Assembly: GCA_949358305.1 (NCBI GenBank)
Contig: OX442314.1
Coordinates: 9,238,001-9,302,000, forward strand
Length of the DNA stretch: 64,000 nucleotides
Direction: 5' to 3'
Source: Strigamia acuminata
Lineage: Eukaryota
A program made the translations under genes and the position numbers. Positions 23,582 to 63,334 of this stretch are shown piece by piece; the stretch's first letter is position 1, and each line of letters begins with the position of its first letter. The notes under the pieces are model-generated. The model was not told the origin of the DNA. It saw only the letters and a program-made list of their open reading frames with translations, and ran no database searches.

Positions 23582-24970
23582 ATTTTTTGCCAGTTTTTGC
23601 CCGATTTTGTCCGGTTTTGCCCGATTTTGCCCGATTTTGCCCGATTTTGCCCCGGTTTTGCTCGATTTTGCCCGGTTTTGCCCGAATTTGTCCGATTTTA
23701 GTAGATTTTGCCCGATTTTGACAGATTTTGTCGGACTTTTGTAAGATTTTGACCGATTTTGCCCGGTTTTGCCCGATTTTGCCCGGTTTTGCCCGGTTTT
23801 GCCCGGTTTTGCTCGGTTTTGCCCGATTTTGCCCCGGTTTTGCCCGATTTTGCCCGGTTTTGCCCGGTTTTGCCCGAATTGCCAGATTTTGTCCGATTTT
23901 AGTAGATTTTGCCCGATTTTGACAGATTTTGTCGGACTTTTGTAAGATTTTGACCGATTTTGCCCGGTTTTGCCCGATTTTTCTCGGTTTTGCCCGATTT
24001 TGCCCGAATTGCCAGATTTTGTCCGATTTTAGTAGATTTTGCCCTTTTGACAGATTTTGTCGGACTTTTGTAAGATTTTGACCGATTTTGCCCGGTTTTG
24101 CCCGGTTTTGCCCGGTTTTGCTCGGTTTTGCCCGATTTTGCCCCGGTTTTGCCCGATTTTGCCCGGTTTTGCCCGGTTTTGCCCGAATTGCCAGATTTTG
24201 TCCGATTTTAGTAGATTTTGCCCGATTTTGACAGATTTTGTCGGACTTTTGTAAGATTTTGACCGATTTTGCCCGGTTTTGCCCGATTTTTCTCGGTTTT
24301 GCCCGATTTTGCCCGAATTGCCAGATTTTGTCCGATTTTAGTAGATTTTGCCCTTTTGACAGATTTTGTCGGACTTTTGTAAGATTTTGACCGATTTTGC
24401 CCGGTTTTGCCCGATTTTGCCCGGTTTTGCCCCGGTTTTGCCCGGTTTTGCCCGGTTTTGCCCGATTTTGCCCGGTTTTGCCCGAATTGCCAGATTTTGT
24501 CCGATTTTAGTAGATTTTGCCCTTTTGACAGATTTTGTCGGACTTTTGTAAGATTTTGACCGATTTTGCCCGGTTTTGCCCGGTTTTGCTCGGTTTTGCC
24601 CGATTTTGCCCCAGTTTTGCCCGGTTTTGCCCGGTTTTGCCCGGTTTTGCCCGAATTGCCAGATTTTGTCCGATTTTAGTAGATTTTGCCCGATTTTGAC
24701 AGATTTTGTCGGACTTTTGTAAGATTTTGACCGATTTTGCCCGGTTTTGCCCGATTTTTCTCGGTTTTGCCCGATTTTGCCCGAATTGCCAGATTTTGTC
24801 CGATTTTAGTAGATTTTGCCCGACTTTGGCAGATTTTGTCCGACTTTTTAAGATTTTGACCGATTTTGCCCGAACTTGCAGATCTTCACGCCAGATTTTG
24901 CCAGATTTTGCAAGCTTTTGCCCGATTCTGCATGATTTTGCATGATTTTGCCAGATTTTGTCCGATTTCT
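23582..24970. repeat. 10-bp satellite with higher-order units of about 130-200 bp
   Basis: TTTTGCCCG(A/G) monomers; marker GTCGGACTTTTGTAAGA recurs about 7 times. Confidence 0.95.
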
Positions 24971-27460: not shown

Positions 27461-28012
27461 ATTGGAATAATGAAAAGAACGGAATAAAATAAGACAACGG
27501 TCGCATGGGAAAAAATGTCGTTCTTACTCGATCAGTACTCGCAGAATTAGCAGAGTAATGACACGATCTGTTGTATGTTCGTTGGTGAAATCAAGAGTGT
27601 GCCAAAACTCTAAATTTGAGCCCAGCAATAAAACGCAATGAGCGCGTTTTGGTGCTACAAAGGAATTATTGCATCAAAACGGTTAATTAGTAGCTCACCC
27701 CAGCCAATTTAAGGTAAGGTGTGCCTAGGAAGTTTTCACCTCCTAGTCACATGGTCTGGTTTGGCACTGCTAAGCCAGACTAATTAAAAATAATAAATAT
27801 TTTTAGTGGTGCAATTCAAATATAAATTAGATACGTTTGAGATCACCACAAATAAAATAATGTATAAAAAGAACATGTGTTTTATGGAACAAATAAAGAG
27901 ATTTCATTTGAGGATATCAATATCCTCAAATTTACATAGCTTGAAAACAATACATTCTTATGCTTGAAAGCACTGTTCCGAGATACGAGTTGTACTAAAC
28001 AAATGAGAAAAG

Positions 28013-31000: not shown

Positions 31001-31862
31001 ATGGCATAGAACGTTAAATTCAAAATGTCCATTTAAGTAACATAATCTGAATTTTCTGTGACGCGACCAGCTAAATATCCAACAGTTGATTTTGTTTATT
31101 CCAAACTTATTTTATTTGTTAAAGAAATTTCGCGACATCACAGGAATCACAGACGATATTTTATCTTCACTGAATAAATTAGCTTACTATGTTGTCCCAA
31201 TTGTGTGTTCTGGTATCCCTTCTGCCGCACCATTCTGCCGGGGATTACTAACACTCCCGACTGGTTACAGTCCAGGAATTTACGGGGTAAAAAATGTAAT
31301 TAATAACTTAATACACGATACTAATACTACTACTGTTTGCTATTGTTAATTAGTTTTGCACAGGTGGCATATTTGCTAATCTTTTGCGAGGTTTCTCAAT
31401 TAAAACACTACTTCACTTCTATCAGGTAATTCGAATCTCTTTTACTTCTCAATGCTTACTTATGTAATTATTTCAGATTTTAACAAATAAACAATTGATG
31501 CGGTATGATTACGGTTTAGATGAAAATCTCGCAAGATATGCAACTGTGAATATAATTCTAATTCTGCTGTTACGTATTAATTAGAGCACTGTAATATTTT
31601 TTTTCTTTTTTTGTATTAGAAAAAGCCCCCAATTGCAAATGTCAGCCGGATTACAACACCCACATATCTTGTCTACAGTGCAAACGATGCCTTAGCAACT
31701 CCACTGAACGTTGCAATGCTGGCAAGAGAAATGAAAACGGCTAACGTCGTATTACTCGAAGATACAATGGTTAATCATGTAGATTTTATTGCTGGTGCAT
31801 TGGACGATAATATTATGAAGCGTATAAATCGTGTAGTACTGGGGTGTATTCGTTTGCCCTAA
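28013..31862 (+). CDS. Acid lipase family (lysosomal acid/gastric lipase, insect Lip3-like) paralog 1, about 409 aa; exons 28013-28159, 28218-28410, 29988-30102, 30154-30304, 30357-30434, 31125-31286, 31354-31425, 31477-31545, 31620-31862
   Basis: Signal peptide; motifs GYPVENHDVTTEDGYILSLQRIP, LHG, GYDVWLGNFR, YWNF, DTPAMIEYIL, YDYG, YSAND, NHVDF; GT-AG introns with consistent phases. Confidence 0.9.
28425..29486 (-). mobile_element. Solo LTR (1062 bp) in intron 2 of lipase 1, related to the LTR at 56180-57325
   Basis: TG...CA ends; 4-bp TSD AAGC; shares TGTAATGAGC start, TAGTGACCACTAGGGTCACTACA end and internal blocks with 56180-57325. Confidence 0.9.
30605..31042. mobile_element. Possible short solo LTR in intron 5 of lipase 1
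   Basis: TGT...ACA ends with imperfect flanks TAATT/TAATC. This intron is about 690 nt versus about 60 nt in the paralogs. Confidence 0.35.
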
Positions 31863-32322
31863 CTAGGTGTGTAATAGAAGGGTGAAGTTTTGGAAATGCA
31901 TAAAGCACATTGCATGACGCAACTAAAATGACCCCTTAATGCTTCTCTGTAATGCAAGGCGCATCCATATAAATATAAACGCATACAATTAATGTAAATA
32001 ATAAAGACAACCTGTAGCATCCTATCCACACCCACACACAAAAAGAACCAAATGCTGAATTCTAATTATTTTGCTAACGATAAAAGAACATTTCAAATTC
32101 ATTGCAATAAATTAAAATTAAATTCCAATGTATTTTTGAACCGTGGAGAAAGTTTATAAATTTATCTGAAATTAGCAGCACATCCTTCACTGTAAATATG
32201 GTACCACCAGGTAAATAGTAACAATAAGAATAGATACCATTCATACCAATAACATTACCATGATAATACAATAAAATAATTTGGAAGCAAATATTTCGCA
32301 GAATGATCAATCCGATGTGCTT

Positions 32323-33299
32323 TGTGGTAATCTCAAAATATTCACCAACTTAGAAGATAAAATTAATTGTCTTCTAATTAATTTGACTGTGGCACACGCC
32401 AAGTCAGATCATGTGACCGAGGGGAGAAATCCTCTCTAGGCACATATCACCCCAGGTTGTCCGGGGTGAAAACGGTTATTAGCCGTTATGGTGCAATATG
32501 GTGTAATAACCACTAGTTGCACCCATTTGAGCTAAGTGCGCAGGTTTTCTGCGCAATATTGAAGCGTGCTGGGCTCGCGCCTTGGCTCAAATCGGGACTC
32601 TGAAAAATAACACACAACCACAAACATCACTGCTTTTGCTCCTGAAAGAAAAGTATTGATAGTGGACTCGTGTTCTTCAGTTTCACCTGCTATCTTTGTG
32701 CAACAAACGCACAAAGCCAGCAATTCTGCTTGAATTAGCCGTAGCTAATTCCAGCAATCGAGAAGAGAAGTTTCCCGACGATCGTGAACCATCGCCGTCG
32801 CTGTTGCGCGAACGACAGCCACCGCCATCGTACGAGAGCCGGACGCCTGCCCCGTGAACCACCGCCACTGAGAGCCGTCGTACGAGGACAGAAGAAACTC
32901 ACGAGAACCATCGTCTTCGACCATCGTTCGTGAGTTTGCAGAACGAAGACAATTTGCCTTCGCCTAACAACATTGTGTTGTTTAAGCGCCATTTCTGACG
33001 CTTTGTAGCTTGCAACAGTCGTTGCAAGCCCTTCCTTTGTTTCATTGTTTCCCGCTCATTTTAATACGCGACTTGTCGCACCTTGTGATATTCTTAATTT
33101 TAACTAGTCATTTCCATTGTAATTAAACCGAATAAAACATATTGTGATTTTTATACTGAAAACTATCTTTTTATTTCTTTTCCTTAAACTTAACCCCTAG
33201 ATAATTTAAGGCCGCCGATTGTAAGTCTTTTAAAGCATTCACCTGCGGTTTCTGCTTAATTTATTAGAAATTAAGTGGATAAAAACCCGGATCGCAGCA
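32323..33299 (+). repeat. 5' LTR
   Basis: Direct repeat of 43746-44722 (offset 11423); identical by eye. Confidence 0.97.
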
Positions 33300-33301
33300 C
33301 G

Positions 33302-33319
33302 TGGGGGCCCGTCCGGGAT
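33302..33319 (+). other. Primer binding site, tRNA-Pro type
   Basis: TGGGGGCCCGTCCGGGAT, 2 nt after the LTR; 17/18 match to the MLV tRNA-Pro PBS TGGGGGCTCGTCCGGGAT. Confidence 0.9.
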
Positions 33320-33412
33320 AGTCATTGTATAAATTTTGATAGTTTAAAATTTACCCGCCATTTTTATCTTGCTTATCTTTCTTCTCTATCCTTTCTAAAT
33401 CCTCATTGAAAA

Positions 33413-36400
33413 ATGGCGACTCCTTCAGAGAAGAGACCGAGAGGAAGGCCGGCGAAGAGACGAGTGGCGATCGATCTACCAGTCGTGGATCAAGAAGTGA
33501 CTGAGTCACAAGAACTGTTTGAAGCCATGGATCAAACAGCTAACTGTAACTCGGCACAGTTAATCGTGAATGAATTCACGCAAGCGTTGGAGCGACAACA
33601 GCCATCCCCGCCCAGCGGCCAGTTGGACTTAAATAATCCAACTGGAAGTGGCCGTTCCAAGACGCAAAACGATGATTTGAATTTACGAATTCAATCATCA
33701 AGTGCAGAGCACTCGCTGAATTCATCACCGGTTCAAGGTGCAGCACAGCAAGATTCTGAGAACTCCAATATGGAAGTTTCTCATTCTCCCGTGCGTGTTA
33801 CCATGATGGACGCACTCCGTGAGCAAGCTAGGCTCGAGGGAGTAAAAGTCACTAGCGAAATGACTGTGGAACAAATCCACAAAGCTATGGTTCGCAAACA
33901 AAGCCAAAAAGACGTTGAAATCGTCAGAACAAGCTTGCAAGCAGAGTTCGAGCGAATGCATGCAGAAATGCAGCAGCAAAATGCCAAACTAAAACAACAA
34001 CGTGCAAATGATCACGTTAAGTTGTTAAATTTAGAGCAGGAAAAAGCTTCCTGGCTAATTACTGACGAAGAGCAACAACAAAGGCTCGAGCAACTAAATC
34101 AAGCACAAAAAGATTTAGAAATTGCTAATGAAAATTTGAGATTGGCCAACGCAAATTTGCGAGAAGCCAACGCAAATTTGCGAGAAGCCAACACAAATTT
34201 AATGACTGCCGAACTAACCGCCCCAGTTCGAGCGAGGGAAGTAATTCCCTCCACTTCTCGAAATTACGAGAATTATGCTGCAGAACAAGCAGCAAGAGCT
34301 AAGAGATTAGCACAACGAGAAAACGAAATATTTCTCGCTCGACAGCAGTCAGTAATTGATGCTGGTCAAGCCGCCAAAAGTCAAAGTACTGCAGAGCAGT
34401 TATTACGTGCCGACTTAGCTGCGCAAGCTCGTGAAAACGAAATTCTTCGCGCAGATCTACTGACAGTACAAGAAAATTTTGCAGTAGTTGTACAAAAAGT
34501 ACAAGACGTTTGCGGCGAAGATAATTTTGCAAAGCCAGCCCCAGTTTTGCAAAAAGGTGCTTCCAAATCACCTGAGTTGATTGATTTAACATCAGCTAAA
34601 CCAAAAGTCAGTCGACAATCAAGTTGGACTGACAGCGATGACTCACGCAGTAGTCGTGGAAGCCGTAATAGTCATCACAGTCGCAAAAAGCGAAAGCGAC
34701 AACCAGACCCGACCGAATATCATTCCCCAAACGTTCCGCAAAATTCGGATCGATTCTTTAGCAATAGTGACCGATTAATCGGATTGCTAGAGAGAAAAAA
34801 TAAAGAACGTGAGAAACCACACGATCGTGGACGGTCACACGATAATCCGCGAGAAGGCTCACCGAAACGAGATTGTCATAACGACATCCGTGATGGGCCG
34901 AGGTACCGTGGAAATCCACCAGGTGGTGACCCACCGGGTGGAGATAGTTCAGATGGACATGGAGGTGGCCACTCACGTGACCACAATTCGAATGGCAATC
35001 GAGGTGGAAGGGGACCACCAAATGGAGACCGTCGTCCGCCAGATGGCGACGATCCTCCGGACCCTGATCCGCCGCCAAATCCGAATCATGAATCTGCGTC
35101 AGATACAGATTCCTCACACCCCAGTGTGAGAGGGCGATCTCGTCACAGAACACGTAGTAGAACTCAAAGACCCGACTTCTACACGAAAGATGAGATTGAC
35201 CAGCTGTTGAGGCAAAATGCTCAACAACAGCGAAAAAGCAGAAGGGATAAAATTATTTTGCAAAAAATAAATGAATTCACTTCTGATAAATGGACTCATC
35301 AAACAACAGATGAAAAGTTCATTAGATGGGATCGAGTTATCCCACATGCCTATAATGGAAATTGGCAAGCAGGGTCAAACCTCTTGCTGGAAATATTCGA
35401 ACTAGGCAAGGTTCACAGTTTTGGCTGTGAAGGTGCATTGGCCCATCTAGTACCAAGAATACTGGTTGGCGATGTCAAGGAGTGGTTTCGCAGGAAAGAC
35501 TTCACGAAGTGGGATGACTTCGTTAAACAATTTATGTTTAAATTTGGTGAATCGAGCGAAGACATCAAGACGCTCTGGAGATGTCTTAAGCAACGAAAAG
35601 GCGAAAGCTTACATTCGTACATGCTAAGAGCAGAGAATCTGCTTGGCAGAATGCCACATGCTGTTACTGATGCAACAGCTGATGATCAGTTTAGAGCTGG
35701 CCTCACAGAATATAGTAAAAATATTCTGATGATGTCGGACGCTCCCGACCCGGGGAAATTCTCCGAGTTAAATGAGTTCATGGAGGTCAATCAATTGCGC
35801 ATTGACGAAAAGTACAAAGCTTACCTTACAGATAGCGAAAGGTCAGCGTACTTAAAGCGAGAGAAAAGACTCGCTGAGCAAAACAATGAAACCTTCAATG
35901 GTTTGAAATTGTTGCAGCCACCTAGTTACGAAGACTTTCTAGACGAGGTGGAAGGGAAGAGTTCGAAAAAAGAATCTTCCAAATAGGACGTCAAAAATCC
36001 TCATTCAGTTCCTAAGTTACATGCAAATATAACTGGAGCTGAAACTCCGTCGTCTGAAGCTGAAGAAGCTGAAGAGGAGGAGGAAGCAGGAGATGAGACG
36101 TTGGCTTTATTAGCCAAAGCAGCGGCGTTGTTAGCAAAAAATAACCCCGTTGCAGGCAAATGGAAGCCAAGAATGAAACCAAAAAATGTTTCATTTGACG
36201 CATCAAAGGTGAATACCGAAAGGAATTCAAAGTCACCTGCGGTGTCGCCAGAGCGCCGGTCTGACGCTCGTTCTCGTTCTGCCTCACCAGCAGCAACGAA
36301 AAAGAAATCGCCTGCCACTGATCCATGCAATTTATGCAAAAAATTAGGGCATTGGCAAAAAGACTGCCCATCCTCTAAGAGGGACAAACCAGTGTCAACA

Positions 36401-36457
36401 GCTGAGTTTGAAAAAGCAGTCAAGATCATAACTGACATGTTTCGAAAAAACTTGTAG
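33413..36457 (+). CDS. gag: Gag (coiled coil, capsid-like domain, CCHC knuckle), interrupted by an in-frame TAG at 35984-35986
   Basis: 857-aa ORF with a capsid/MHR-like segment (WDDFVKQF...QRKGESLHSY). The same frame stays open after the TAG to 36457 and contains CNLCKKLGHWQKDC. Confidence 0.9.
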
Positions 36458-36491
36458 ACGCAGATCCATCAGGTCTAGTGGACGCTGCGTC
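36445..36491 (+). other. -1 ribosomal frameshift signal at the gag-pol junction
   Basis: A AAA AAC heptamer in the gag frame, 5-nt spacer, then stem GACGCAG/CTGCGTC extended by TCCA/TGGA; pol lies in the -1 frame. Confidence 0.8.
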
Positions 36492-39400
36492 ACCTCTGAA
36501 ATCGGAATCAGAAAATGAAAATCTGAAGATAATGGAAGATGTTGGAGAAGTTATTGATGAATTAATTCGTCAAACAGAACTAAAAGAAAAGGAATCTCTT
36601 GAGTTAAAAAAGGAGATTGTCGGCGAAACTCCGACTGAAGAAGACACTTCCAATATTAAAGATAAAGTCGAAGTTAAAGACGATAGACCAAGCTCAGTTC
36701 CAGAGACACCTGGAATTGAGGAGTGCATTAAGTTATTTGCAACTACAACTCTTGATACCAATGAGTTATTAGACGAACTACCTTTGGAGCCTCCAATTAC
36801 AGTTCCTCATAAATTGCGCAAGTTTGAGTGCAAAGTGGCTGGAATACCAAACAGCCATGACCTTCCAACGTTGAAGTTAGAAACGTTAAAAGGTGTAATA
36901 ACTGGAATGTTGGACTCAGGAGCAAATAAAAGCTTCCTAGCCACTTCAGTTATTAACCAATTAGGTCTAGAAAAATATCTACGACCTATCGGACCTGGTG
37001 TCAGAGTTACGACGGCAAGTGAAGAAGTCACTCCAGATGGAACCATCCATCTTTCATTTCGATGGACACATGGCACGTTACGTCATCCGTTCATCGTAAT
37101 ACCAAATAAGTATCCCATGGTACTATTGGGTTGCGATTTTATGAATAAGTTAAAAATCCAACCTAATCCACAGACGATGTCTTGGAATTTCACGCAACCT
37201 GTGGATGCAGATTTACCCTACATTCCACAAGCGTTGCTGGAACGTTATTTGGAGAAAATAGAGGAACCCGATTCCTCATTTATGACCTTCGCAAAAGCAT
37301 ACGCTGCAAGTGTAACTCAAGGCAAAATTGATGAAGAGAATTTCATCCAAAAGTTAGTCGAAGAAGCTAACTTAAATTTGGAGCAATCCAAATTATTAGA
37401 AAAGATGTTATCCAAACATAAAAGGATTATTTCTAAAGATCCAGGTAAAACACACCTGGTTAAGCACAAAATTGAGCTTGACACGGAGAAACCCATCCGT
37501 GTCCCCTTTAAGAGCATAAACCCTCAAAAAAGGGAAATAATCAGACAACTTTGTCAAGACATGATTGACAAAGGCGTAGTCGTCAAAGCTGAAGGCGATT
37601 ACGGAATGCGGCCAGTCCTAGTCATGCGACCAGGAAACGACCCACGTTTGTGCATTGATTTTCGCCCCATCAATACACATACTAAGTACAACCCACCTCA
37701 AATGCCAACAATTGAGGAAATTCTGCGAGAAATCGGAGAATTCGAGTGGGTCAGTACTATAGATCTGACCAAGGGATATTGGCAGATAGAATTGCGACCT
37801 GAAGACAGAGAAAAAACTGCCTTCTGGAGCCCAATGGGAAGACTAATGTTTTTAGTCATGCCTTTCGGATTAGTAAACGCACCAACTACCTTCCAAGAAT
37901 TGATGGAAAAAGTTTTGGGTGACGTTTACAGAAAATTTGCATGGGCATATTTGGATGACATAATTGTTGTATCCAAATCGTTCGAAGAACACATTAAACA
38001 TTTAGATATAGTGTTTAAAAAATTGGCAGAAGCTAATTTACATGCGCATCCTGGCAAGACGCATCTCTGTAGAAAGGAATTAATTTTTCTAGGCTACAAA
38101 GTAGGAGTAGAAGGACTTGCAGTAGACCCTAAAAAAGTCGCTGCAATTACGCAATTTCCGGCTCCTACCAATCTTAAGGAATTACAAAGATTTCTAGGCA
38201 TGGTGAATTTCTTTCACCGCCTAATCAAGAATTTGGCCACAGTGGCAGAACCACTAAGGCCTCTCTTGAAGAAAGATGCGGAGTTCGATTGGGAACTGCA
38301 TCATCAGGCAGCATTCGACGCAATAAAAGACTTACTTACGAATGCTGAAACAATGAAGATGCCTGACTTGTACATGCCATTTATTGTTCATACTGACGCC
38401 AGTAGACAAGGGTTGGGTGCAGCCCTTACACAAAAGAAAAATGTGGATGGCCAAGAAGTCGAAATGCCATGCGTGTATGCAAGCAGAAGCTTGCAGCCCG
38501 CTGAAAAGAATTATACTGTGACAGAATTGGAATGTCTCGCAGTAGTATGGGGATTGCGCAAATTTCGCCCATACTTAGAGTACACTACATTCACTGTACA
38601 AACGGATCACCAAGCACTTAAGTGGTTGATGTCGTTATCTGACCCGTCGGGCAGATTAGCTCGTTGGCAAATGGAGCTGATGGCGTATTCGTTCGAAATA
38701 CAGTACGTCAAAGGTCCGCTAAATGTAATAGCAGACGCATTGTCACGTGCACCTGTCAGCGCACCTGACGAACCAGAAGACGATGGCGATAATGATGATT
38801 TATTATCATATTGTCCATCTCCTTGCCGAAGTTGGCAAATGGGAAAATTGAACGAATTACCCAAGTCAATAATAGTCAATGAAGATGATCAAGCATTAAT
38901 TAATTTTTGTATTAATATGCATGATCCGTCAGGAACCCCTGACGTCGAATTAAGAGCTATGATGGCTAAAAAATTCGAGCTGCCAACAACAAATGTTTTA
39001 ATTAAAGCATTTGCAGCTAAAATTGCTAAACAATTGGAATGTGATCCTCCAACGAGAGATGACATTATTGCAGAGCAAAAAGCAGACAAATTTTGCCAAT
39101 ATATTCGCAATTACTTATTAAATAAGCAATATCCAAGTTACATAGTAACTCGTCTTCAAAGAAGAAATTTTGAAAGACACGCGAGTACTTATCTCATTGA
39201 AGAAGATATGTTACTCCATTATCATCCTACCTCTACCGATGAATTGGGAGAGGATGGTAGGGCACTTAAAGTTGTTGTGCCAAGAAAATTGATTTATAAA
39301 ATCATTTGGTTGATGCACGGACATCCACTGTCCGGCCACCCAGGCATTGCGAGGACAATGTACCGAACTCGAAGAGTTTATACCTGGAAAGGTATGAAAC

Positions 39401-40704
39401 GTGATATTACACGTTTTATTCAGCATTGTCAAGGATGTCAGGCATGTAAGCCGAGATCAAAGACCGAAATTGAAGGCGCTCAAATTGGACCATTTGGACC
39501 ATTTGACTGCCTCAGTGTGGATTTGTCTGGTCCCAAACCAAGAACCAGAAAAAACAATACCCACATTTGCGTCATCGTAGATGTCGCTACACATTGGCCC
39601 GAATTATTTCCAATGTGTAATCCAACGGCAATAAAAGTTGCCAACACAATTTATCACTTATCAATGACTTTCGGATTTCCGAGACAAATCTTAAGTGATA
39701 ATGGACCACAATTTCGATCACAGGTCTATAAAGAATTTTGCAAAAAATTCGACATGTCGCGAACACCGACATCGATTTATCATCCACAAAGCAATCCTGT
39801 GGAGAGAACCAATCGAGATATTAAATATTTAGTTTCGATTTATTTAGATATTCATGACCAATGGGATGAGTATCTACGCGAATTTGCATTCAGTTTGAGA
39901 ACAACTGTAACAAGAGGCAGAGATTATTCTCCTGCTTTCTTAAATTTTTTCCGAGAATTAAGAATTCCTTGGGATCCAAGAATTCCGGAAGGAATTTTAG
40001 TCATTGATCCAAAAAATCCGCATTTATATGTTCAGAAATTAGAAGCAATAATTGCAGAGACGTATCAGCATATGATGTCTCACGTCTTAGATTTGAGACG
40101 CCGTGTCGAAGCTGAAAAATCAGATAAGAAATTCGATAACTTCAGACAGAATGATTTAGTCTGGCGAGAGTCTCATATTCTCTCAAATGCCGCTAAAGGA
40201 ATAGCAGCAGGCATTTCACCGAAAAGGAATGGGCCTTATGTAATTGTCAAAAGGTTACAAGGAGGCGCCTTTCAACTTCGACGGCTGAGTGATAATAAAA
40301 TTTATCCAGCTGTTCACGGCACTGAATTAATGCCGTACTTTCCCGTTTTCAACCAAGAAATTTGGCTGGAAGGGGAGGAAGTGGGTCAAAAAACAAAAAA
40401 TATTGTTAATACCTTGGATGATGTTGAATTATCCAAAATTCCTGTCGAAAACACGGAATCGAGTGAAAAATCGAAACTCAAAAATAACGAAGTCGATGAA
40501 ATAAACAAGCGACTTGAAAATGTTTCTCTTGATGAAAATCTAGAAAAGGAAATGTTTTTAGAAAAAGAGAAAATTTCAAACAATGAAGAAAATAACTCAT
40601 CTGACATTGGAGACGATGCTGATGACAATCTAAACAAGTTGGATTGTACTTCGCGAAAGTCAAAGTACAACTTGAGATCTCGCGTTCCGCGAGTCAAGAC
40701 ATAG
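36478..40704 (+). CDS. pol: Pol polyprotein (protease, RT, RNase H, integrase), probably made as a Gag-Pol fusion
   Basis: LDSGA; MPFGL and YLDD; TDAS...ELECLAVVW; HHCC zinc finger; VDL, SDNG, VER (DDE). Confidence 0.97.
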   Translation: MDAASPLKSESENENLKIMEDVGEVIDELIRQTELKEKESLELKKEIVGETPTEEDTSNIKDKVEVKDDRPSSVPETPGIEECIKLFATTTLDTNELLDELPLEPPITVPHKLRKFECKVAGIPNSHDLPTLKLETLKGVITGMLDSGANKSFLATSVINQLGLEKYLRPIGPGVRVTTASEEVTPDGTIHLSFRWTHGTLRHPFIVIPNKYPMVLLGCDFMNKLKIQPNPQTMSWNFTQPVDADLPYIPQALLERYLEKIEEPDSSFMTFAKAYAASVTQGKIDEENFIQKLVEEANLNLEQSKLLEKMLSKHKRIISKDPGKTHLVKHKIELDTEKPIRVPFKSINPQKREIIRQLCQDMIDKGVVVKAEGDYGMRPVLVMRPGNDPRLCIDFRPINTHTKYNPPQMPTIEEILREIGEFEWVSTIDLTKGYWQIELRPEDREKTAFWSPMGRLMFLVMPFGLVNAPTTFQELMEKVLGDVYRKFAWAYLDDIIVVSKSFEEHIKHLDIVFKKLAEANLHAHPGKTHLCRKELIFLGYKVGVEGLAVDPKKVAAITQFPAPTNLKELQRFLGMVNFFHRLIKNLATVAEPLRPLLKKDAEFDWELHHQAAFDAIKDLLTNAETMKMPDLYMPFIVHTDASRQGLGAALTQKKNVDGQEVEMPCVYASRSLQPAEKNYTVTELECLAVVWGLRKFRPYLEYTTFTVQTDHQALKWLMSLSDPSGRLARWQMELMAYSFEIQYVKGPLNVIADALSRAPVSAPDEPEDDGDNDDLLSYCPSPCRSWQMGKLNELPKSIIVNEDDQALINFCINMHDPSGTPDVELRAMMAKKFELPTTNVLIKAFAAKIAKQLECDPPTRDDIIAEQKADKFCQYIRNYLLNKQYPSYIVTRLQRRNFERHASTYLIEEDMLLHYHPTSTDELGEDGRALKVVVPRKLIYKIIWLMHGHPLSGHPGIARTMYRTRRVYTWKGMKRDITRFIQHCQGCQACKPRSKTEIEGAQIGPFGPFDCLSVDLSGPKPRTRKNNTHICVIVDVATHWPELFPMCNPTAIKVANTIYHLSMTFGFPRQILSDNGPQFRSQVYKEFCKKFDMSRTPTSIYHPQSNPVERTNRDIKYLVSIYLDIHDQWDEYLREFAFSLRTTVTRGRDYSPAFLNFFRELRIPWDPRIPEGILVIDPKNPHLYVQKLEAIIAETYQHMMSHVLDLRRRVEAEKSDKKFDNFRQNDLVWRESHILSNAAKGIAAGISPKRNGPYVIVKRLQGGAFQLRRLSDNKIYPAVHGTELMPYFPVFNQEIWLEGEEVGQKTKNIVNTLDDVELSKIPVENTESSEKSKLKNNEVDEINKRLENVSLDENLEKEMFLEKEKISNNEENNSSDIGDDADDNLNKLDCTSRKSKYNLRSRVPRVKT

Positions 40705-41046
40705 CGTTGACTTTCACCTTTTGGGTTCACCCAAAAGATCCGAGAGGGCAATCTCGTGACGTCATTCGTAGTTCACACTCGAATGACAACGTTCACAATG
40801 CGTTATAATTTGTGACGTCATTCGGTGTCACCGAAACAAGTTCGTTTCTCCAATCAACGAACTTAGCCACTTTTCCGATAAGTTTTGAAGTGGATGCATC
40901 GACTCCGATACCACACGACAGTTTTTATTGATTCAGCAAACTGTAAGTTATTTTTCTGAAAGAAAAATTCGATAAATATATTTAATATAGTTTATTACTT
41001 CTTTCTAGCCGAAAGAATTTCTTTTTCGACGCGAAAAAGAAAACGA

Positions 41047-43693
41047 ATGGCAGACGACGAAGTCAACCTCCATGCGGACGAGGAAACGCCGATGGAAGGA
41101 GCCGGTAACGATGTCCAATTATCGTTACAACAGAGGGTAAATTATTAAAATAATTTTCACTTGGTGTTTCAGTCAGAAAAATTGAGTAATTCCACTTTTC
41201 CTGACTTCAAACACAAGCCGCTCAAAAATAAAAATGGCGGCTATAAAAGTCACGTGCTTCCAGCATGTGCGAAGGGAGTTGCCATGACAACCATCATCCC
41301 TTAGTGGTTCACTGCCACAAGCGCTAAGCTTAAAAAATATTTCAAATAAGAAATTATTTGTTTATTTTTAAATAAACTAATTTATTTATTTTTTTTTTCG
41401 AATATAGATCGAGAGGGATCGAGAAACGCCGTTCGCGCTTCCCGACCATGTGCCAACTCAGCACCCGCTGATTTTTCGAGCGGCGTTGCCCGAAAAAATT
41501 AGACGTCTGAAGACGGCGAACAACACGTGGTGGAAGCTGCGCCACGACTTCAGCAGATCGGCTCTGCAAGGATTTGGAGCAAGAGGTCGATTCATCGAGC
41601 GCCTTCACGTGGACGGTGTCGACGAAATCGAGTGGACGCTCGACGAGAGCCCCCCAGGACCACTAGCTGCCGAGTTGCTGCACAACCAGTGGCCAGTGAC
41701 GCCACGAGAGCGTCACGAGCGCAGAAGAGCGCTAAAGAGTACCGGAATTAATTACGGTGCTCTCACCCAATTGAGGAAGAACCTCAAAACAACACAACGC
41801 GAAGTCGTGCAACGGTACCGCAAGTCCGTTCGTGACGGGAACCCGCAATTTCCCGCCACACAAACCGAGCTCCATCAGTTGGCGCTCGCCGGGTGTTTTA
41901 ATGATTTTCCGGGATTTTTCCCGTCGAAAGCACTCCGAGCTGCCGCAGTGCAGCTTCGCGTCGACGAAAATCGACAACTGGCTCAAGCACTCGAGGCAGA
42001 GGAGCAAGCGCGCTGCGCTCTCCCTTTTTATCGGGAAGATGAAATTCCGGCCCCAGCGGCCATCCATCCTCCGCCACAAGACGAGGATTTGAGGGTGGGG
42101 CAACTCCCTCCGCCGGTTCCGGTCCGACCGATGTTCCGCGAATCGAGCCGCGATCGAGAGGAGCGACAGAGGCGATCGCGCCCATATTCGACTGAAGCAC
42201 CGCCACCACGCCCGCAGTCGCGACGAGGACGGACACCAGAGACGTTTGGCTCGTCGTCCTCGCTGAGTTTCGAATCGGACTCCACAATCCAGTCCGCCCG
42301 AAGTAGCCGAACCGCCTCCACGTTCAAAGTGGACAACCCGGCTACTCCATACGCCATGAGACGTGTTGTCGGTGATATCTCTCCCGACTGTAGCGTGCCA
42401 GTACCTGGACACGCTAGCCGCTTGCCCGAACATGGATATGTTTCCCGCTTGCCGGCTGGAGTTAGCAACCTGCAACTCCGGCCATTTTTTAGTGAGTCAT
42501 TCGGACCACAATGGACCTGCTACGAGCAGCAACCCATTAGAGCACAGCAGGAAGTGCTCCAGAAGCTGGACGCATACCAAAGCGCCCAGATCGCCGAGTC
42601 GCAGAAGGACTGGCAGAGATTGGCTGAAAGGCTAGAGCTCTCAGACATCATGACCATTGATGATCCCCGACTAATGGATTTCCAGCGTCAGCTAATTCCG
42701 GGGATGACTAGGGTGTTGTACCCTGGTGTTCTTCCTTCGCCAGGACAGGCGTTAGCGGCCATCACGTACCTTTGGACCGCGCCGATGGGCCTGTCGGAGA
42801 AGAAAGTCGAGCTGTGGTACCACCTCCGGCTCGACCCGCCTACGATCTTAGCCGAGCTAATAAAGCAAGTCGTAGCAAACGGTGAGACCGAAGAAGAGGC
42901 CGCCGTTCGGTTGCGAACCGAGTGGTCCTTTGCGAAGGCCACGGCGCGAATAGCCGGAAGACCACCGCTTCCAGTTACAAGCGCCACAGCAGCTGCGTCA
43001 CTGGCTGTTTTTCAGTCGGCCCAAGAAGGCGCTGGATGTTCGTTTTGGCCGGAGAACGCCGGAAGTTCTCAAACTCCAGCCGGAGTTCAACGGGCAGTCG
43101 AACCCCGTAAGCTCACCGGAGTTGGTCGAGCGCAGGGACGAGGCGTCACACCCTCGTCAACCTCCGCACCCGCGTTGGTTTTCTTGGGCTCGCCGAGCCA
43201 TTTCGACGATGCCTCGACGGAAGACTCACGTCCACCGCCGCCGCCGCCGCCAGCCAAGCCGGAGACGAAGGTCAAGCCGCTGAAGAAGGAGTCGGCTTTC
43301 AAGACCCTGATGCGCCTGTATCCGCACTTCTATTTGACGCCGGATACAAGAACACTGCTGAGCAACAATCACAAGTTGTCGAGGCAGGTGTTTATGTGGC
43401 TCGAAGACCACATTCGGGTGTTAAGCCCACCATCGGTGCTCCATGATCGACTCCTGAGAGCACGATTAGCGCCAGAGGATCCGATAGAGTTTGCGGCGCT
43501 GGGATTTTTCAACCGAGCGAACTCGGCAAGAATCATCCAGGTTTGGCTTCATGTCAACCCTGGAATGGTCTCCGGACCAAACGCAGGTCGCGACCTGTGT
43601 ACGGTTAACGAGCGGTCCAACCCGAGGGACGACACCACGGATATGATGCGCCCGTTGACGCCTGAGCGAACTCAGAACATGGACGAATCATAA
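41047..43693 (+). CDS. Spliced third ORF of the Gypsy element, about 791 aa, function unknown; exons 41047-41136 and 41408-43693
   Basis: A 30-codon ATG exon ending AGG|GTAAAT splices in phase 0 to a T-tract/TAG acceptor at 41407, in frame with the 747-aa ORF (whose track start is a GTG). A 66-nt GTAAGT..CTAG intron lies upstream at 40943-41008. Confidence 0.8.
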
Positions 43694-43732
43694 ATTGGTT
43701 CGTTCATTTTCTCTCCATGTAAGATTCGTCTT

Positions 43733-43745
43733 AAATGGGGGGATG
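43733..43745 (+). other. Polypurine tract
   Basis: AAATGGGGGGATG immediately before the 3' LTR. Confidence 0.8.
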
Positions 43746-44722
43746 TGTGGTAATCTCAAAATATTCACCAACTTAGAAGATAAAATTAATTGTCTTCTAA
43801 TTAATTTGACTGTGGCACACGCCAAGTCAGATCATGTGACCGAGGGGAGAAATCCTCTCTAGGCACATATCACCCCAGGTTGTCCGGGGTGAAAACGGTT
43901 ATTAGCCGTTATGGTGCAATATGGTGTAATAACCACTAGTTGCACCCATTTGAGCTAAGTGCGCAGGTTTTCTGCGCAATATTGAAGCGTGCTGGGCTCG
44001 CGCCTTGGCTCAAATCGGGACTCTGAAAAATAACACACAACCACAAACATCACTGCTTTTGCTCCTGAAAGAAAAGTATTGATAGTGGACTCGTGTTCTT
44101 CAGTTTCACCTGCTATCTTTGTGCAACAAACGCACAAAGCCAGCAATTCTGCTTGAATTAGCCGTAGCTAATTCCAGCAATCGAGAAGAGAAGTTTCCCG
44201 ACGATCGTGAACCATCGCCGTCGCTGTTGCGCGAACGACAGCCACCGCCATCGTACGAGAGCCGGACGCCTGCCCCGTGAACCACCGCCACTGAGAGCCG
44301 TCGTACGAGGACAGAAGAAACTCACGAGAACCATCGTCTTCGACCATCGTTCGTGAGTTTGCAGAACGAAGACAATTTGCCTTCGCCTAACAACATTGTG
44401 TTGTTTAAGCGCCATTTCTGACGCTTTGTAGCTTGCAACAGTCGTTGCAAGCCCTTCCTTTGTTTCATTGTTTCCCGCTCATTTTAATACGCGACTTGTC
44501 GCACCTTGTGATATTCTTAATTTTAACTAGTCATTTCCATTGTAATTAAACCGAATAAAACATATTGTGATTTTTATACTGAAAACTATCTTTTTATTTC
44601 TTTTCCTTAAACTTAACCCCTAGATAATTTAAGGCCGCCGATTGTAAGTCTTTTAAAGCATTCACCTGCGGTTTCTGCTTAATTTATTAGAAATTAAGTG
44701 GATAAAAACCCGGATCGCAGCA
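43746..44722 (+). repeat. 3' LTR
   Basis: Direct repeat of 32323-33299, followed by TSD GCTT. Confidence 0.97.
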
Positions 44723-44950
44723 GCTTTTGAATCTTGACAAAAGTAAGAAAAACAAAATTAAACTGTTACACAATCCACTTACAAGTTGCAAACTATTCTA
44801 GACAAAACGGTGCAATGCATTGTTGCAGAACATCGCTTAAATCGTGAACAATTGATGTGAGCATCTGGCACACTGTACGATCAAACCGATATGAATTAAA
44901 TGTAAAGAAAAAATGCCCTTGAATACTATTAGTTCACTCTTTCCTGAACA

Positions 44951-47900
44951 ATGAATTTTGCTGGATTGCTCGTGTTTTGTTCCATTGCTTTAACATGCAA
45001 CAGCAAGAATTTGACAGAAATTTGCTTCAATAGTAATCCAAAAAACACTGACAACCTAATCAATAACTACAAAATGTGGATATCAGGAACAGTAAGGATG
45101 TTTTTATTTGTTTAAGGGGTTATTTGGAGATATTTAATTTTTCTTAAGGCTAAACTCATTAGAGAAGCTGGATACCCGCTTGAAATTCACCAGGTAAGCA
45201 CGGATGACGGTTACATCATCAACATACAAAGAATACCACATGGACTCACAAATAAACGCAGAGATTCCGCTGCACCTGTATTAGTCCTCCCGGGATTAGG
45301 GACATCGTCAGCAATGTATGTTGTCTTTCCAAATAGCATCGGTAGGCGCATTTCAATCATTTTTAAAAGAAACACCACAAGGTAATCTTCAAGAGACAAA
45401 TTGTTTTCTTAAATCACTTAGAGAATTGAACTAAATAAGTGAATTCTCAGAGATATGATGTAAAAAACGTCATATCCTGTTGTGAGAAGTCATTTCAGAG
45501 GAATATGTCGATTCGTCTTTTGAAGATTGAAAGCATCTACACTCTGGCTCACTACAAGATGGGCCTTTCTCCCATTGGCTGAGCCATTTCACTTGTGTAG
45601 TGACACATAAAAGTAAATCAAAACTCCAGAATTGCATTAGATGTGCAGACATTGCAATCGATTATTTATTTTTAGGAAATTGTGTGCTTTCCTGACAAAG
45701 CAACCGATAAACTGAACAAACATGTACGTTGAAATAAAAACAGCATAAAACTGTATTTTATAAATGGAAAAAACATTTTATTATAAAATACAATTAAAAT
45801 TATATCATTTTAATCATTATGGTAGTACACAGTCTATAGTTAGAAGTAATGAGACTCGGCCAATGGGAGAAAGGCCCACCTTGTAGTGAGCCAGAGTATA
45901 ATGTAAAATTCTGTCAAAAATGTTTCTTTTTCCAGTGTACATGCTGGCCAATGAAGGTTATGACGTTTGGCTAGGAAATTTTCGAAGTAGTTACCAAGAT
46001 ACCCGACACATCAAATATTCACAATCACAATCGGAATATTGGGACTTCAGGTAAAATTTCCATTCTTCGTTGTACATTTTTATGCTGCTTCTGCTCTGAA
46101 TGAGAAGCTTTATGTTTCTGCAACAAGTTTCCAAGAATGTCCTGCTTTTTCAAGCAAATTAATTTTAATCCACAGTATGGATGAAATGGGTCTGTATGAC
46201 ACACCTGCAATGATTGACCATATTTTGAAAACCACCAATCAAACTCAACTATCAATAATTTCTCTGTCAATGTCAACTATAACAACTTCACTTATGCTTG
46301 CTCTCAAACCAGAAATAAATAATAAGGTAAACCAAATTCAACCGCCACACTCGAAATTTAAAGTTAGTTGTTTGATTTAACAGGTATCAAAGCATTTGGT
46401 AATAGCACCTGCAGTGAATCTTGATTACATGGTTATTCCAACATTTCCATTGGTCGTAGCAAAAGTATAAATGTAAAAGAGTGTCTACACTACCAACTAC
46501 ACTAATCGCTTTACTCGTTCAAGACAATTTACAACATAAGGTCCATAGTCTCCTTTTTTGCAATCTTCAACAAATTAAGCTTCTACTTGACACCAATTAT
46601 ATGTTCACCTTTTGGTTTCATGCGTATCTGCCAAGGATTATTGACGATATTCATTTCTGGCTACAGTCCAGGGTCTTATGGGGTTTGAAATGATAGATAA
46701 TTGAAAGATTTAATTTAAACACACATGTAATACATCCTGTACACCTACTAGTATATCTACGATATACTCTTGTATACAGGGTGAGTCAAAAGTCTAGAAA
46801 CACCTTTTTTTCTTGAAAAGGACTGAAGATGTATCAATTCTATTAATCTGGTCGAATAGGAAGTTGATGCTGTTTTCTTGGATGTGGATAACAGGAAAGC
46901 TGGAAACTGAATATACAGTATGTTATAAGTGCGTTTAAATCAAATTTTCAAGCTTCTATTCTCAAAGAACTTGACTGTTGTGTTTCTTTAGTCATGTATC
47001 TGTTTGTACAATTGCAGATTTGTATTGGTGGAATGATAAATGGTGGTTTTCGAGGCATGTCAATTAAGACACTCGCACAAGACTATCAGGTAAATGCAAA
47101 GATAAATTATGAGCACATCTGCAAAAAGTCTTTCCTGGCGAGTCAAACCAGCATGTTGGTTTGCTTCAGCTTGAAGACTTGCCTAAATCTTTCATTCAAG
47201 GCTGTACCTTCTCCCATTGGCTGAGCCATTTCACTTGTACATTGATACAAAAAAAAGACCAAACCACCAGAATTGCACTTGATGTACAGACATTGTAGTT
47301 GAAAAGCAAAAATTCAAAAATTGTTTGCTTTCCTGACAAAGCAACCAATAAACTAAACAAACATGTATGATGAATTAAAAACAGCATAAAACTTAATTTC
47401 ATGAATCAAAAAAACATTTTATTATAAAATACAAATAAAATTTAATTATTTTAATCATTAGAATGATCCAAAAAATAACAAAATCTACTTTTCTTGGTGG
47501 CACAGTAGGAGTAATGAGGCTCGGCCAATGACAGAAGGTACAACTTTGTAGTTGATCAGAGTATACAGTATGATTATTTCTCAGACTGTAACGAGAAAAC
47601 AGCTGTCCAGATTCGATTATGGGTCCAAGGAAAACCTTGCGAGATACGGAACTGTAAGTGCAATGTTAATACAACACTGCAAATATATGTATGGTACGTT
47701 CTTTCTTTATGGTTAGGAAATTGCACCAATTGTAGATGTCAGTCGGATCACAACACCCACAACTTTCATCCACAGTGCAAATGATCCCATGGGAACTCCT
47801 GTAAATGTTGAACTGCTGGCAAGAAAAATGAAAACAGCTAGAGTTATTTTACTTAAAGATCGAATGATAAATCACATAGATTATACCGTCGGTAGGCTTG

Positions 47901-47959
47901 ACGATAATGTAGTAAATGATTTCAACCATTTAATACTGGAAATCATTAAGTTGCCATAG
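44951..47959 (+). CDS. Acid lipase family paralog 2, about 407 aa; exons 44951-45091, 45149-45341, 45936-46050, 46176-46326, 46384-46464, 46524-46682, 47018-47089, 47585-47653, 47717-47959
   Basis: Same exon sizes and phases as paralog 1 (193, 115, 151, 72, 69, 243 nt); motifs DDGYIINIQRIP, GYDVWLGNFR, HSAND, NHIDY. Confidence 0.9.
45540..45898. mobile_element. Tc1/mariner-like MITE in intron 2 of lipase 2
   Basis: TIR of about 40 bp (ACTCTGGCTCACTACAAG.TGGGCCTTTCTCCCATTGGC) with TA flanks. Confidence 0.8.
47203..47563. mobile_element. Second, left-truncated copy of the same MITE in intron 7 of lipase 2
   Basis: Colinear similarity to 45567-45898 (TTCTCCCATTGGCTGAGCCATTTCACTTGT ... CAGAGTATA). 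Confidence 0.75.
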
Positions 47960-48216
47960 ATTTTGAATGCAATTAAAGTATATTTTTTGTTTATACTGTA
48001 GTGGTCCCCAAAGTGTCACTTTAATTAGGTTAATTTTAATGTGTCTTCAAAGTGGTTTGAAGTGATGAATCTCGATGTAAAATGTCGAGTCAAGAAAATG
48101 GCAGCCATGAGGTAAGTGAATATGTACGTAGTCTGTCTTGACTAAAGGAGACCGTAGGAGTGTGTAATTCACAATTGTTAAAATTCTTGTTAAATAAAGT
48201 ATTCACATGACCTACT

Positions 48217-51200: not shown

Positions 51201-54065
51201 ATGATTTTCCTAAACTTGATGTTGTTAAGCTCCTTTGCTTTAATATGCAATTGCAAAAATTTTAATCAACTTTGCTATGATGTCCAACAACACAAAACTT
51301 TAGACGCACTAACCAGCGTGTACAAACTTTCAATATCGAAAACGGTATAGAGTAATTTCGTTGTTTTTGTTGTTCATTTAGAATTATTTTTTTTTTCGCA
51401 CGAGGTTCGGAATATTCAAAATAATGAATACCCCGTTGAGATTCATAAGGTAACCACAGATGACGGATACATCCTCGACGTGCATAGAATCCCATACGGA
51501 CTCAAGCAAGACCGTAAAGATAATGCTCCTCCAGTTTTAATCCTTCATGGAATAGGCTCATCATCGGCTCCGTTCACTTTTTTCCCTAAAAGCATTGGTA
51601 AGTCCCACTATCTAATGAATAGTTGTTCATGAAACCGAATTGTTTGGATAATCGAACATTAGATTTATACACGTATGAAAACAAAATGTCATTATAATAT
51701 AGTTAGAAAGGAATGAAACTGACCAAAAATAGATAAAAATTATCAAAAAACATTAAAAACCGATTAAAACTTCTAACAACGTCAAAATATTAATTTTTGT
51801 GGCGTCATTTTGTGTTCGGTGGCCCCGAGTCCTGCAAGTATTTTGGATCCCATTTATTGGGCCACTAATTTTCCTGAGAATTCCACTAAAATTAATTTAG
51901 TGGGAAATTCAGTAAGTGGAAAATTTAATATTTATTTAGTGGGAATTTCAGGAAAATTAGTGAGGTTTTAATTTACCCCCAAATATTTTCAGTGTTTCCT
52001 TATAAAAAATATTGTGATTTCAGCTTACAAGCTGGCCAATGAAGGTTATGACGTCTGGCTAGGAAATTTACGAAGTAGTTTTGAATATAGTCGTCACGTT
52101 AACTATTCGCAGTTGGACTCCGAATTTTGGAACTTCGGGTACAGTCAAAGAATATTCTTTTTCTGTGTACAAGTAAACTGTGACTGCTTCAATTGTATGC
52201 CTGACATGTGACATCATAACTACTCATAATTCAGAATTCATAATTCACTATTCATGATATCAACATGTCACATTTCCAGCAGCCTATTCACCAAGTGTTA
52301 TGATAAAATTGTCGGCTTCACCGCTTTGCTCCGATCTTCTAAAGGTGGAAACACAAGGAAGCGGGTAAAATTCCAAAGCTTGCTAGTACAAGTTTAAAGA
52401 GGGAATCATTTACAAGCTCACTTGACCCGCTTTTGGCTTACCAGCTTAACTGACAAACTCAAGCTAGTTAGAAATTCCTGCCAAAATTTCCTCCAAGAAT
52501 TTCTTCATGATTCTGATTGGCTGTCAAAATCACATGACCAAAACACCACCAAGCTTGAAGCTGGTAAATGAAACTCAGTTTGATCGGAGCGGGTGTGTAC
52601 AAGCTGGCTTCAAAACAAAGCTTTGAATAAAAATACAAGCTTGTGTTTGCTCAAGCGAGCGAATTTTTAGCCGCTTTTTCAAGAAAAAGGAAGTTTTTAA
52701 ATTTTAGCCGCTCCCTTGTGTGTCCACCTTAAAACAATTTTACAGACAAATACAAAACACGTGCACTCAAAAAGCAAGGCATAAGCACGACTTAAGTAAA
52801 TCTTAAAAGAAAAAAAATGTTTAAGCTCCATTTAGTTATCAAAACCCAATTTTTCTGTTGCAACGACCGAATCAGCTTGCTTTGCACCATGTTTGTCAGC
52901 ATTACTTTTAATGTAAACACAAAGTGATTAAAAAAATTACTTCCATCACAGAGTGGACGAAATGGCCTTATTTGACACACCTGCAATGATTAACTACATT
53001 TTGCTAATCACTAATCAAACTCAGCTATCCATCATGTCTATGTCTATGTCAACAACGACCACAACAGTCATGCTTGCTTTCAAACCAGAACTAAATAAAA
53101 AGGTGACATCATCATGCCATTCTTTGCTAATTACTAACATAATTAATCAGCACATTTGTAGGTGTCAAAACATGTTGCTGTAGCACCAACAGTGTATCTT
53201 GACCACTTCGTTTCTTTACTTCCAAGTCATCTAATAAAAGTAGTGTATGTGTGAATGTGAAACCGATCAGAATAATCTAATGCATCAATTATTTCCTTCC
53301 TTTAAGAAATTGGTCGATGTTGTAAAGTATCAAGACAACTTTCTCTCAGTACTCAATAAATTATCCTTTTACTTGCTACCGATTGCATGTTCACCGCTTG
53401 GATTCGTGCATTTATGCCAAGCGGCTGTATTACTCGTTGTTGGCTATTCCCCAGGAAATTACGGGGTTTGAAAACATTGTAATAAAATAAACTGGGCATG
53501 TCAGCATTGTAGATGCATTTTCAGGCTTGCATTGGGCCAATAATAACGGGTGGACTGCGAGGAACCTCAATGAAAACACTGCTCCACTTTTATCAAGTAA
53601 GTTGTTCGTTTACTTTAGGTGTAATTGGATTTATTGTGTGGTTTTTAAAATTTTTGTTTGTTTAGTAGACTAATTCATAACGTTATTTCTCAGCTTTTAA
53701 CAACAAAGCAGTTGATGCGATATGATTACGGATTAGAGGAAAATCTTGTCAGATATGGAAGTGTAAATGCAATGTTTATTTATGGTGGTTAGTTAAGTAA
53801 TCATTTTATTCCTCTTTCGTGATAGGAAATTCCACCAATTGCTGATTTAAGTCAAATCACAGTGCCCACATGCATTGTCCATAGTGCCAACGATCCCGTA
53901 GGAAGTCCACTGAATGCTGCATTGCTGGCAAAAAGAATGAAAACGGCAAAAATTGTATTAATGGAAGATACAATGATTACTCACATGGATTTTGTTGTTG
54001 GAGCATTTGATGATGATATTTTGGAGCGAATAAATCGCGTAATATCAGAGAACATTCGAACTTAA
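51201..54065 (+). CDS. Acid lipase family paralog 3; exons 51201-51344, 51405-51597, 52024-52138, 52952-53102, 53162-53239 or 53242, 53307-53465, 53525-53596, 53694-53762, 53826-54065
   Basis: Same exon structure; motifs TDDGYILDVHRIP, LHG, GYDVWLGNLR, FWNF, HSAND, THMDF. The exon 5 donor is ambiguous. Confidence 0.88.
52343..52729. mobile_element. PIF/Harbinger MITE in intron 3 of lipase 3
   Basis: Imperfect TIR of about 30 bp (AGGTGGA.ACACAAGG.AGCGG.TAAAATT); TSD TAA. Confidence 0.85.
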
Positions 54066-54437
54066 GCACATTCCACATTTCTCGGACAAATATTGGTGAT
54101 TTGTATTTGCAGTTTATAGTTTCATATCAGCAATTTACGCTGACTAGACAATGGTTATCTGTACATAAATTTCTAAAACGTAATTTTACATGCAGATCGC
54201 ACTTTTCAAGTTCATTTACTGCAAAAACTACATTTTTCTATGTACAAAAAACATTTTTGAGATTATGTATTATACACAATGAAATCACTAAGACAATAAG
54301 ACAAATGTTTAAGCAACTGTTTTACTAAAGATCAAACTGATATGAATTAAAAATCTTAATAAAAGAAATAAATTACATACAGTACATGCATTTTTCTTTG
54401 AATATTCCCCATTCTTCTGCCAAACAGATCTAATCCG

Positions 54438-63300: not shown

Positions 63301-63334
63301 GTCCTTGTAGTTGTTTCTTATGATGATCAGACAT
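57362..63334 (-). CDS. Large low-complexity protein of unknown function (1527 aa plus an in-frame 461 aa after TGA at 58751-58753)
   Basis: Fills almost the whole interior of element 2; RNES repeats, SPTxLKL helical repeats and [IV]DLT motifs; no CCHC, protease, YxDD or DDE motifs seen. Confidence 0.75.

Follow-up and report, generated by a model that had tools for sequence, protein, structure and literature searches.

Animal Gypsy elements are usually viewed as simple, with gag, pol and sometimes env. The element described here lies in a 64-kb window (the whole stretch of DNA analysed, 64,000 nucleotides, numbered from its first letter) and carries, between pol and the 3′ LTR, a third gene that appears to be interrupted by introns. 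What does this gene encode, how is it expressed and what could it do for the element? The original prediction, made from the letters alone, took its product for an undescribed accessory protein other than Env. The locus bears on a wider question, as the escape of animal Gypsy elements from germline silencing and their export of intron-containing RNA are largely open, and a young family of about 100 copies that encodes a conserved accessory protein, large and probably soluble, would be a direct handle on it.

A complete Gypsy-type element in a young family

The element is a complete LTR retrotransposon of 12.4 kb on the plus strand (32323-44722). Two identical LTRs of 977 bp, each starting with TG and ending with CA, occupy positions 32323..33299 and 43746..44722, and the insertion is bordered by the 4-bp target-site duplication GCTT (32319..32322 and 44723..44726). 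The sequence contains a primer-binding site directly behind the 5′ LTR (33302..33319), which we take to be of the tRNA-Pro type, and a polypurine tract ahead of the 3′ LTR (43733..43745). In pol (36436..40704), protease, reverse transcriptase, RNase H and finally integrase follow each other in this order (Pfam positions 146-241, 403-556, 619-751 and 948-1117), and gag has capsid and nucleocapsid domains. Two LTRs with a primer-binding site and a polypurine tract, this pol domain order and such a gag are features that define the Metaviridae (Ty3/Gypsy; PMC7879559), and the element fits this definition. At least 120 relatives of pol were found, with 32-46% identity among the matches listed; those with names come mostly from arthropods and some from rotifers. 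When pol was queried against viral contigs, neither of two candidates was confirmed.

The main frame of gag (33413..35986) contains a capsid-like region at about residues 578-753 (capsid profile E-value of 2e-11) and ends in TAG. Its in-frame continuation past the TAG (35987..36457) encodes a CCHC zinc knuckle (PF00098, 22.3 bits against a cut-off of 20.8), so that the stop codon at 35984-35986 interrupts gag ahead of the knuckle. This TAG is absent from the best 40 of 455 differences among copies. It may be shared by the family and read through in a programmed manner, which would amount to double recoding, or else be a lesion in the present copy. The start of pol lies in the -1 frame, and a slippery-like A AAA AAC (36445-36451) is found here with a stem-loop behind it.

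Two sequencing runs, X1 and X2, contain this stretch, and no run recorded as RNA was among those listed. The two belong to a single study, which leaves their kind unrecorded. We read them as DNA because the host flank and several old single-copy sequences lie at a common depth (about 246 in X1 and about 107 in X2). Single contigs of the element in X2 reach depths of 8,723 and 11,198, which suggests a family of about 80-105 copies, an estimate given that depth is not copy number. The element thus apparently belongs to a young, recently active Gypsy family. One X1 contig matches the right flank (44723-45000) up to the target duplication and then continues with 25 letters that apparently do not resemble the LTR, as would be expected of an empty site and hence of a polymorphic insertion.

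The third gene is conserved among copies of the element

The gene model places all parts of the third gene on the plus strand. A 66-nt intron in the 5′ UTR (40943..41008, GTAAGT..TTCTAG, 18% GC) precedes an exon of 30 codons that starts with 38 nt of UTR (41009..41136; ATG at 41047, 90 nt coding, phase-0 donor). A putative phase-0 intron of 271 nt (41137..41407, GT..AG), to which reading frame and selection point, separates this exon from the large coding exon, hereafter exon 2, with 761 codons plus stop (41408..43693). By arithmetic, 30 and 761 codons give a predicted product of 791 amino acids. The stop codon of exon 2 lies 52 nt upstream of the 3′ LTR, and the first AATAAA beyond it (44554), inside this LTR, is likely to be the poly(A) signal for the third gene too.

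Exon 2 differs from the rest of the element in base composition, with 57.9% GC against 39.7% in pol and a GC3 of 0.61 against 0.34-0.38 in pol and gag. Its product is rich in Pro (10.2%), Arg (9.8%) and Ser (7.5%). The original prediction had this right, both in the exact coordinates of the two introns and two exons and in the more GC-rich DNA and the Pro/Arg/Ser-rich linkers of a product of about 791 residues. An open frame of 761 codons far exceeds chance, as the longest among 1000 base shuffles had 343 codons.

We classified the differences among copies singly on the window's codon, taking the best 40 of 455 rows and the best 40 of 93, and counted those in gag, pol and the two coding exons, leaving rows elsewhere out. 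Among the differences listed in exon 2, 29 of 36 are synonymous where 10.5 would be expected (pN/pS ~0.10). Listed differences in gag and pol together yield a nearly identical picture (21 of 26 synonymous, pN/pS ~0.097). The other five frames over exon 2 make 4, 4, 2, 21 and 5 of the 36 listed differences synonymous, and the single high value arises because this antisense frame shares third positions. The nominal P of 1e-10 for the synonymous excess is too small, because the counts cover just the rows with the best support (40 of 93 and 40 of 455) and treat differences that are linked. Despite this inflated significance, the direction of selection on exon 2 is clear from the codon comparison, and it is purifying. 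Judged by its sequence across copies, the third gene is real and conserved within the family, and it is constrained like pol. Neutral decay in other copies, which the original prediction had held up as the contrary case, was not borne out.

Two observations speak against the gene. All three differences listed in the 30-codon exon are non-synonymous, where 0.8 synonymous ones would be expected, and no indel is listed there. One X2 contig has two 1-nt insertions in exon 2 (42121 and 42124), at a place where diverged copies align poorly; the remaining nine of the 11 listed indels fall upstream or in introns. Another X2 contig (depth 5,964) skips 40875-41163, that is, intron 1, the first coding exon and the donor of intron 2, and is not among the X1 listings. 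Either a deleted derivative or a subfamily whose first exon has diverged could explain this contig, the letters between its two parts being not known.

A candidate internal promoter between pol and the first intron

The region between the pol stop and intron 1 contains a candidate internal promoter (40757..40820, plus strand) that is absent from the original prediction and bears on the mechanism. Two TGACGTCA palindromes, which we take to be CREs, lie 56 nt apart (40757 and 40813), and a TATAA (40804), presumably a TATA-like box, sits between them and not downstream of both. None of 20000 shuffles of 40705-41046 contained two such sites. The full TGACGTCA is found nowhere in the rest of the element, and five more times in the 64-kb window. 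One diverged contig per run retains TGACGTCA at 40813, although just 6 of the 16 bases that follow agree (counted by eye); this conserved site looks like a promoter footprint, for a motif that was chosen after inspection.

We consider it somewhat probable that this candidate promoter serves the third gene. The sequence also allows an alternative, namely Env-style long-range splicing from strong donor-like GT sites on the plus strand of the 5′ LTR (32930 and 33221). A promoter independent of the LTR would suit a protein that is needed before the LTR fires, such as an activator or a reliever of silencing. In the middle of intron 2 (~41232-41256), motifs of regulatory type lie close together, presumably YY1/Pho-like, TATA-like and E-box-like. 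They are possibly a second regulatory element.

Introns are retained in nearly all copies

Intron 2 is closed in all three frames (3, 6 and 8 stops), and the acceptor AG is precisely where the frame of exon 2 becomes open. Of the ATG-led frames, just one connects in phase to exon 2 via the donor at 41137; it begins at 41047, or at an internal Met at 41092. As 24 of the 30 listed differences upstream of the first Met within exon 2 (codon 242) are synonymous, this part of the exon seems to be translated and splicing is likely needed. Intron 2 is therefore likely to be removed from the third-gene mRNA. Its joint (41136/41408) is not among the five joints listed, all in contigs that are probably DNA.

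The exact joint of intron 1 (40942/41009, GT..AG) was found in one contig each of X1 (depth 501) and X2 (depth 121.5). Its shorter side has 29 letters and the letters between are recorded as not known; the joint lies at the predicted bases in both runs. If the runs are DNA, the joint most simply reflects a copy made from RNA that had already lost intron 1, and if they are RNA, it is the splice itself. Against the flank depths of 246 and 107, the intron-1-less form amounts to about two copies in X1 and about one in X2, among the ~80-105 copies of the family. The original prediction held that the introns persist because unspliced genomic RNA is what gets copied. That nearly all genomic copies keep them, with only ~1-2 exceptions lacking intron 1, is as expected under this proposal. 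The rare intron-1-less copy thereby documents, in nature, the stringency with which unspliced RNA is selected as the template.

Because the introns of the genomic RNA are consensus-like and nearly all copies still keep them, something seems to favour unspliced RNA. One explanation is that the third-gene protein, whose mRNA would be the same transcript after splicing, binds genomic RNA that still contains the introns and shields it from splicing or exports it, as a Rev-like factor or like CERV of the Caenorhabditis elegans element Cer1. Rev is recognised by an Arg-rich motif plus a nuclear export signal (NES). The third-gene protein has basic clusters at exon-2 residues 105-142 and 247-275, which agrees with such a role, as does the predicted folding of the RNA: the element has a mean z of -2.2 (307 windows over 32323-44722; -2.6 in gag-pol and -1.9 on the reverse strand), against -0.56 and -0.23 in its two flanks. 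By this prediction, the RNA exceeds chance in its degree of structure from one end of the element to the other, and the flanks do not. CERV, as described in the available sections of PMC10309623, also has the general build that is predicted for the third-gene protein, with no homologs, three folded domains joined by flexible linkers, and a spliced mRNA.

Several observations nevertheless argue against a factor of this kind. An internal promoter would break the feedback loop that Rev and CERV use. The protein contains a single NES-like pattern match, and its six Cys in 761 residues form no cluster and no Cys-rich finger. Intron 2 does not fold better (z of about -3 to -4 in the whole-element scan) than many other parts of the element. 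Moreover, cis-acting export elements can suffice without a protein, according to the same available sections (PMC10309623). We therefore regard this explanation, the main rival to the one we favour, as rather unlikely. A structured RNA special to intron 2 was tried as a candidate and rejected, as its z of -5.2 when folded alone is accompanied by -4.2 on the reverse strand and by many stronger windows in the element. The search against Rfam gave three matches, all far below their cut-offs.

The product is an orphan and probably soluble

The Kyte-Doolittle mean over 19 residues peaks at 1.0 in exon 2, on what is a simple scale, and the product of the 30-codon exon is acidic. The absence of an evident signal peptide or transmembrane segment, as originally noted, was thus upheld, and the protein is likely soluble. 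Sequence searches with the 761 residues of exon 2 gave no families in Pfam (E-value up to 1), none among 7993 scored candidates with lengths of 418-1332, none among 1.84 billion representatives of any length, and none in the PDB (E-value up to 10). In the ESM Atlas, neither the whole protein nor residues 360-545 had a usable match, and in metagenome contigs none of 37 pattern matches to the protein was confirmed. These blanks mean that there is no relative at the sensitivity of the searches, and are not proof of a new fold. AlphaFold models made from the single sequence are poor (mean pLDDT 40-42). Composition and these poor models agree on three more hydrophobic, mostly helical regions in exon 2 (~85-205, 375-536 and 625-735) with Pro/Ser-rich linkers. 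Foldseek found nothing at E-values up to 0.001 with a low-confidence model as query, and the best VIA-align result, again with a poor model as query, was a Z of 6.6 over 45 residues of generic helices. An enzymatic product like the GDSL and DEDDy proteins of other elements was considered and rejected on the empty Pfam and PDB sequence searches.

The position after pol is that of env, and the sequence has one RxRR match (exon-2 residue 253), so that a highly diverged Env or another fusogen has to be weighed. No homology to F-type or gB-type fusogens appeared in Pfam (E-value up to 1) or in the searches of representative and PDB sequences. The fold search that had been proposed as a check for Env or a fusogen gave no match and, with modelling this poor, was uninformative. 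F-type and gB-type ectodomains are bounded by signal peptide or membrane segments in the available text of PMC13524379, and hydropathy points to neither in this protein. Its one N-glycosylation sequon, six Cys and 10% Pro also speak against an ectodomain. With no evident signal peptide or membrane segment and no sequence match, we conclude that the product is not Env, and consider the opposite extremely improbable.

The gene could also be a passenger, a host or foreign gene that was captured together with its promoter and introns and is kept for a benefit to the host cell or has not yet decayed. Its promoter-like region, UTR intron and distinct GC content do resemble a captured cellular gene. 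However, the searched representatives held no detectable homolog, and across the family the depth of the third gene is comparable with that of gag and pol. The purifying selection among copies points to selection on the element. A passenger is in our judgement quite improbable.

A further possibility is a cytoplasmic role, either in counter-defence against small-RNA or restriction pathways, like that of Bet in foamy viruses, or as an adaptor for trafficking or a scaffold of the particle. The orphan status and the GC3 that sets exon 2 apart fit a captured, fast-diverging module, and the Pro-rich linkers, two YPxL-like matches and predicted long helices also count in favour of a cytoplasmic role. 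On the other hand, constraint within the family equals that of pol, without a sign of an arms race, and the protein contains no WG/GW motifs. The capsid profile that finds Gag misses the third gene (E-value of 0.07), and a second capsid was rejected as a candidate on this comparison. We consider a cytoplasmic role unlikely.

Comparison with known systems

The original prediction compared the gene with errantivirus Env only, and this overstated its novelty. In the available parts of PMC13524379 and in PMC7879559, errantivirus env (F-type or gB-type) follows pol and needs splicing for its expression. It is made by one splice from the leader and is membrane-anchored, whereas the third gene has internal introns and its product neither an anchor nor homology to Env. 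Closer precedents are found in the accessible text of three other studies (PMC5408684, PMC10309623 and PMC4402516). The prediction of an accessory protein holds insofar as the gene is real, conserved, an orphan and not Env; its claim to be undescribed goes too far, as non-Env third genes have been described and are a recurring class.

CERV (517 amino acids, five exons) is a non-Env protein of Cer1, a Gypsy/Ty3 element, and is needed for export of its genomic RNA (PMC10309623, available sections). It resembles the third-gene protein in being a soluble non-Env product of an animal Gypsy-type element, with no outside homologs, a multi-exon spliced mRNA and three folded domains on linkers (the mRNA and the domains being predicted in the present case). 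This is a likeness by description; broad sequence searches with the third gene matched nothing. The same sections place CERV in overlap with gag, its exons 1-3 being in the gag frame, and describe an M domain with a Cys loop (PMC10309623). The third gene, in contrast, is confined to the stretch from pol to the 3′ LTR; it lacks a Cys loop and seemingly has its own promoter. In the bdelloid rotifer elements Juno and Vesta, as far as the available text of PMC5408684 goes, family-specific non-Env ORF3s also follow pol; they encode a GDSL esterase, a DEDDy exonuclease or short membrane or coiled-coil proteins, whereas the product here is an orphan. That text makes no mention of introns.

Internal promoters have precedents as well. 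According to the accessible part of PMC4402516, env of the Oikopleura elements Tor3b/4b is transcribed from an internal promoter that lies within pol or immediately behind it, and complex retroviruses use internal promoters for accessory genes. The Tor3b/4b product is a true membrane Env from an unspliced mRNA; here introns are present and the promoter is a candidate. The plant Gypsy elements Grande and Retand carry conserved extra ORFs between pol and the 3′ LTR (gene23 and TRP28, respectively), and gene23 is driven by a promoter of its own and encodes a nuclear protein, as reported in the available text of PMC7264820 and PMC11963269. These ORFs are antisense there, whereas the third gene is in sense orientation and has introns. 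Planarian Burro elements have accessory domains (PMC6431247, accessible part).

Each ingredient is thus precedented, be it a non-Env ORF3, a spliced Gypsy regulator or an internal promoter. No paper listed from the literature covered, which excluded most subscription journals and Repbase reports, describes an animal Gypsy element with a post-pol gene that has internal introns and its own promoter. Within this literature, what is new is the combination of a post-pol position, internal introns, a likely promoter of its own and an orphan product of 791 amino acids.

A possible self-encoded on-switch

Taking these sequence features together, our best explanation overall, which we favour tentatively, is that the third gene has its own promoter, is spliced twice and encodes a soluble regulator that turns on the full-length RNA. 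Host factors of the CREB/ATF type would bind the two TGACGTCA sites, and the candidate internal promoter would give rise to a short transcript terminating within the 3′ LTR. Removal of both introns would yield the 791-residue protein, which could enter the nucleus and there either activate the LTR or relieve its silencing. The acidic N-terminus and the basic clusters of the protein count in favour of such a regulator; against it, neither a DNA-binding domain nor a nuclear signal of convincing quality was detected. The full-length RNA that is copied would usually retain both introns, so that the gene is inherited with them.

The trans-acting switch-on protein of foamy viruses is Tas. In the available text of PMC7828637, foamy viruses possess an internal promoter, and tas/bel-2, which encodes Tas and Bet, directly precedes their 3′ LTR. 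They differ from the present element in being vertebrate retroviruses that also have env, and we found no sequence likeness between them and the third gene. It is conceivable, if somewhat doubtful, that the Gypsy element reached the foamy-virus plan independently, with a TGACGTCA-driven promoter and a twice-spliced 791-residue LTR on-switch from a new family, possibly together with gag-pol readthrough and frameshifting. If true, an LTR retrotransposon of an animal would thus encode the switch that turns it on.

Genomic surroundings

Elsewhere in the window, repeat families (D13, D17, D18 and D20) and translations identify three similar gene copies in tandem (~28000-31900, 44950-47960 and 51350-54070), which we take to be lipase-like. 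The element sits between the first and the second copy. Short tandem repeat arrays with periods of about 10, 20, 21, 30 and 41 nt are dense at ~5300-25000 and account for several spurious long frames there. On the minus strand, 57362-63373 holds a low-complexity, A-rich frame of 1540 codons, followed by one TGA and another 462 codons in the same frame. Pfam gave no family above its cut-off for this frame, which may belong to a further element or represent a giant exon of the host.
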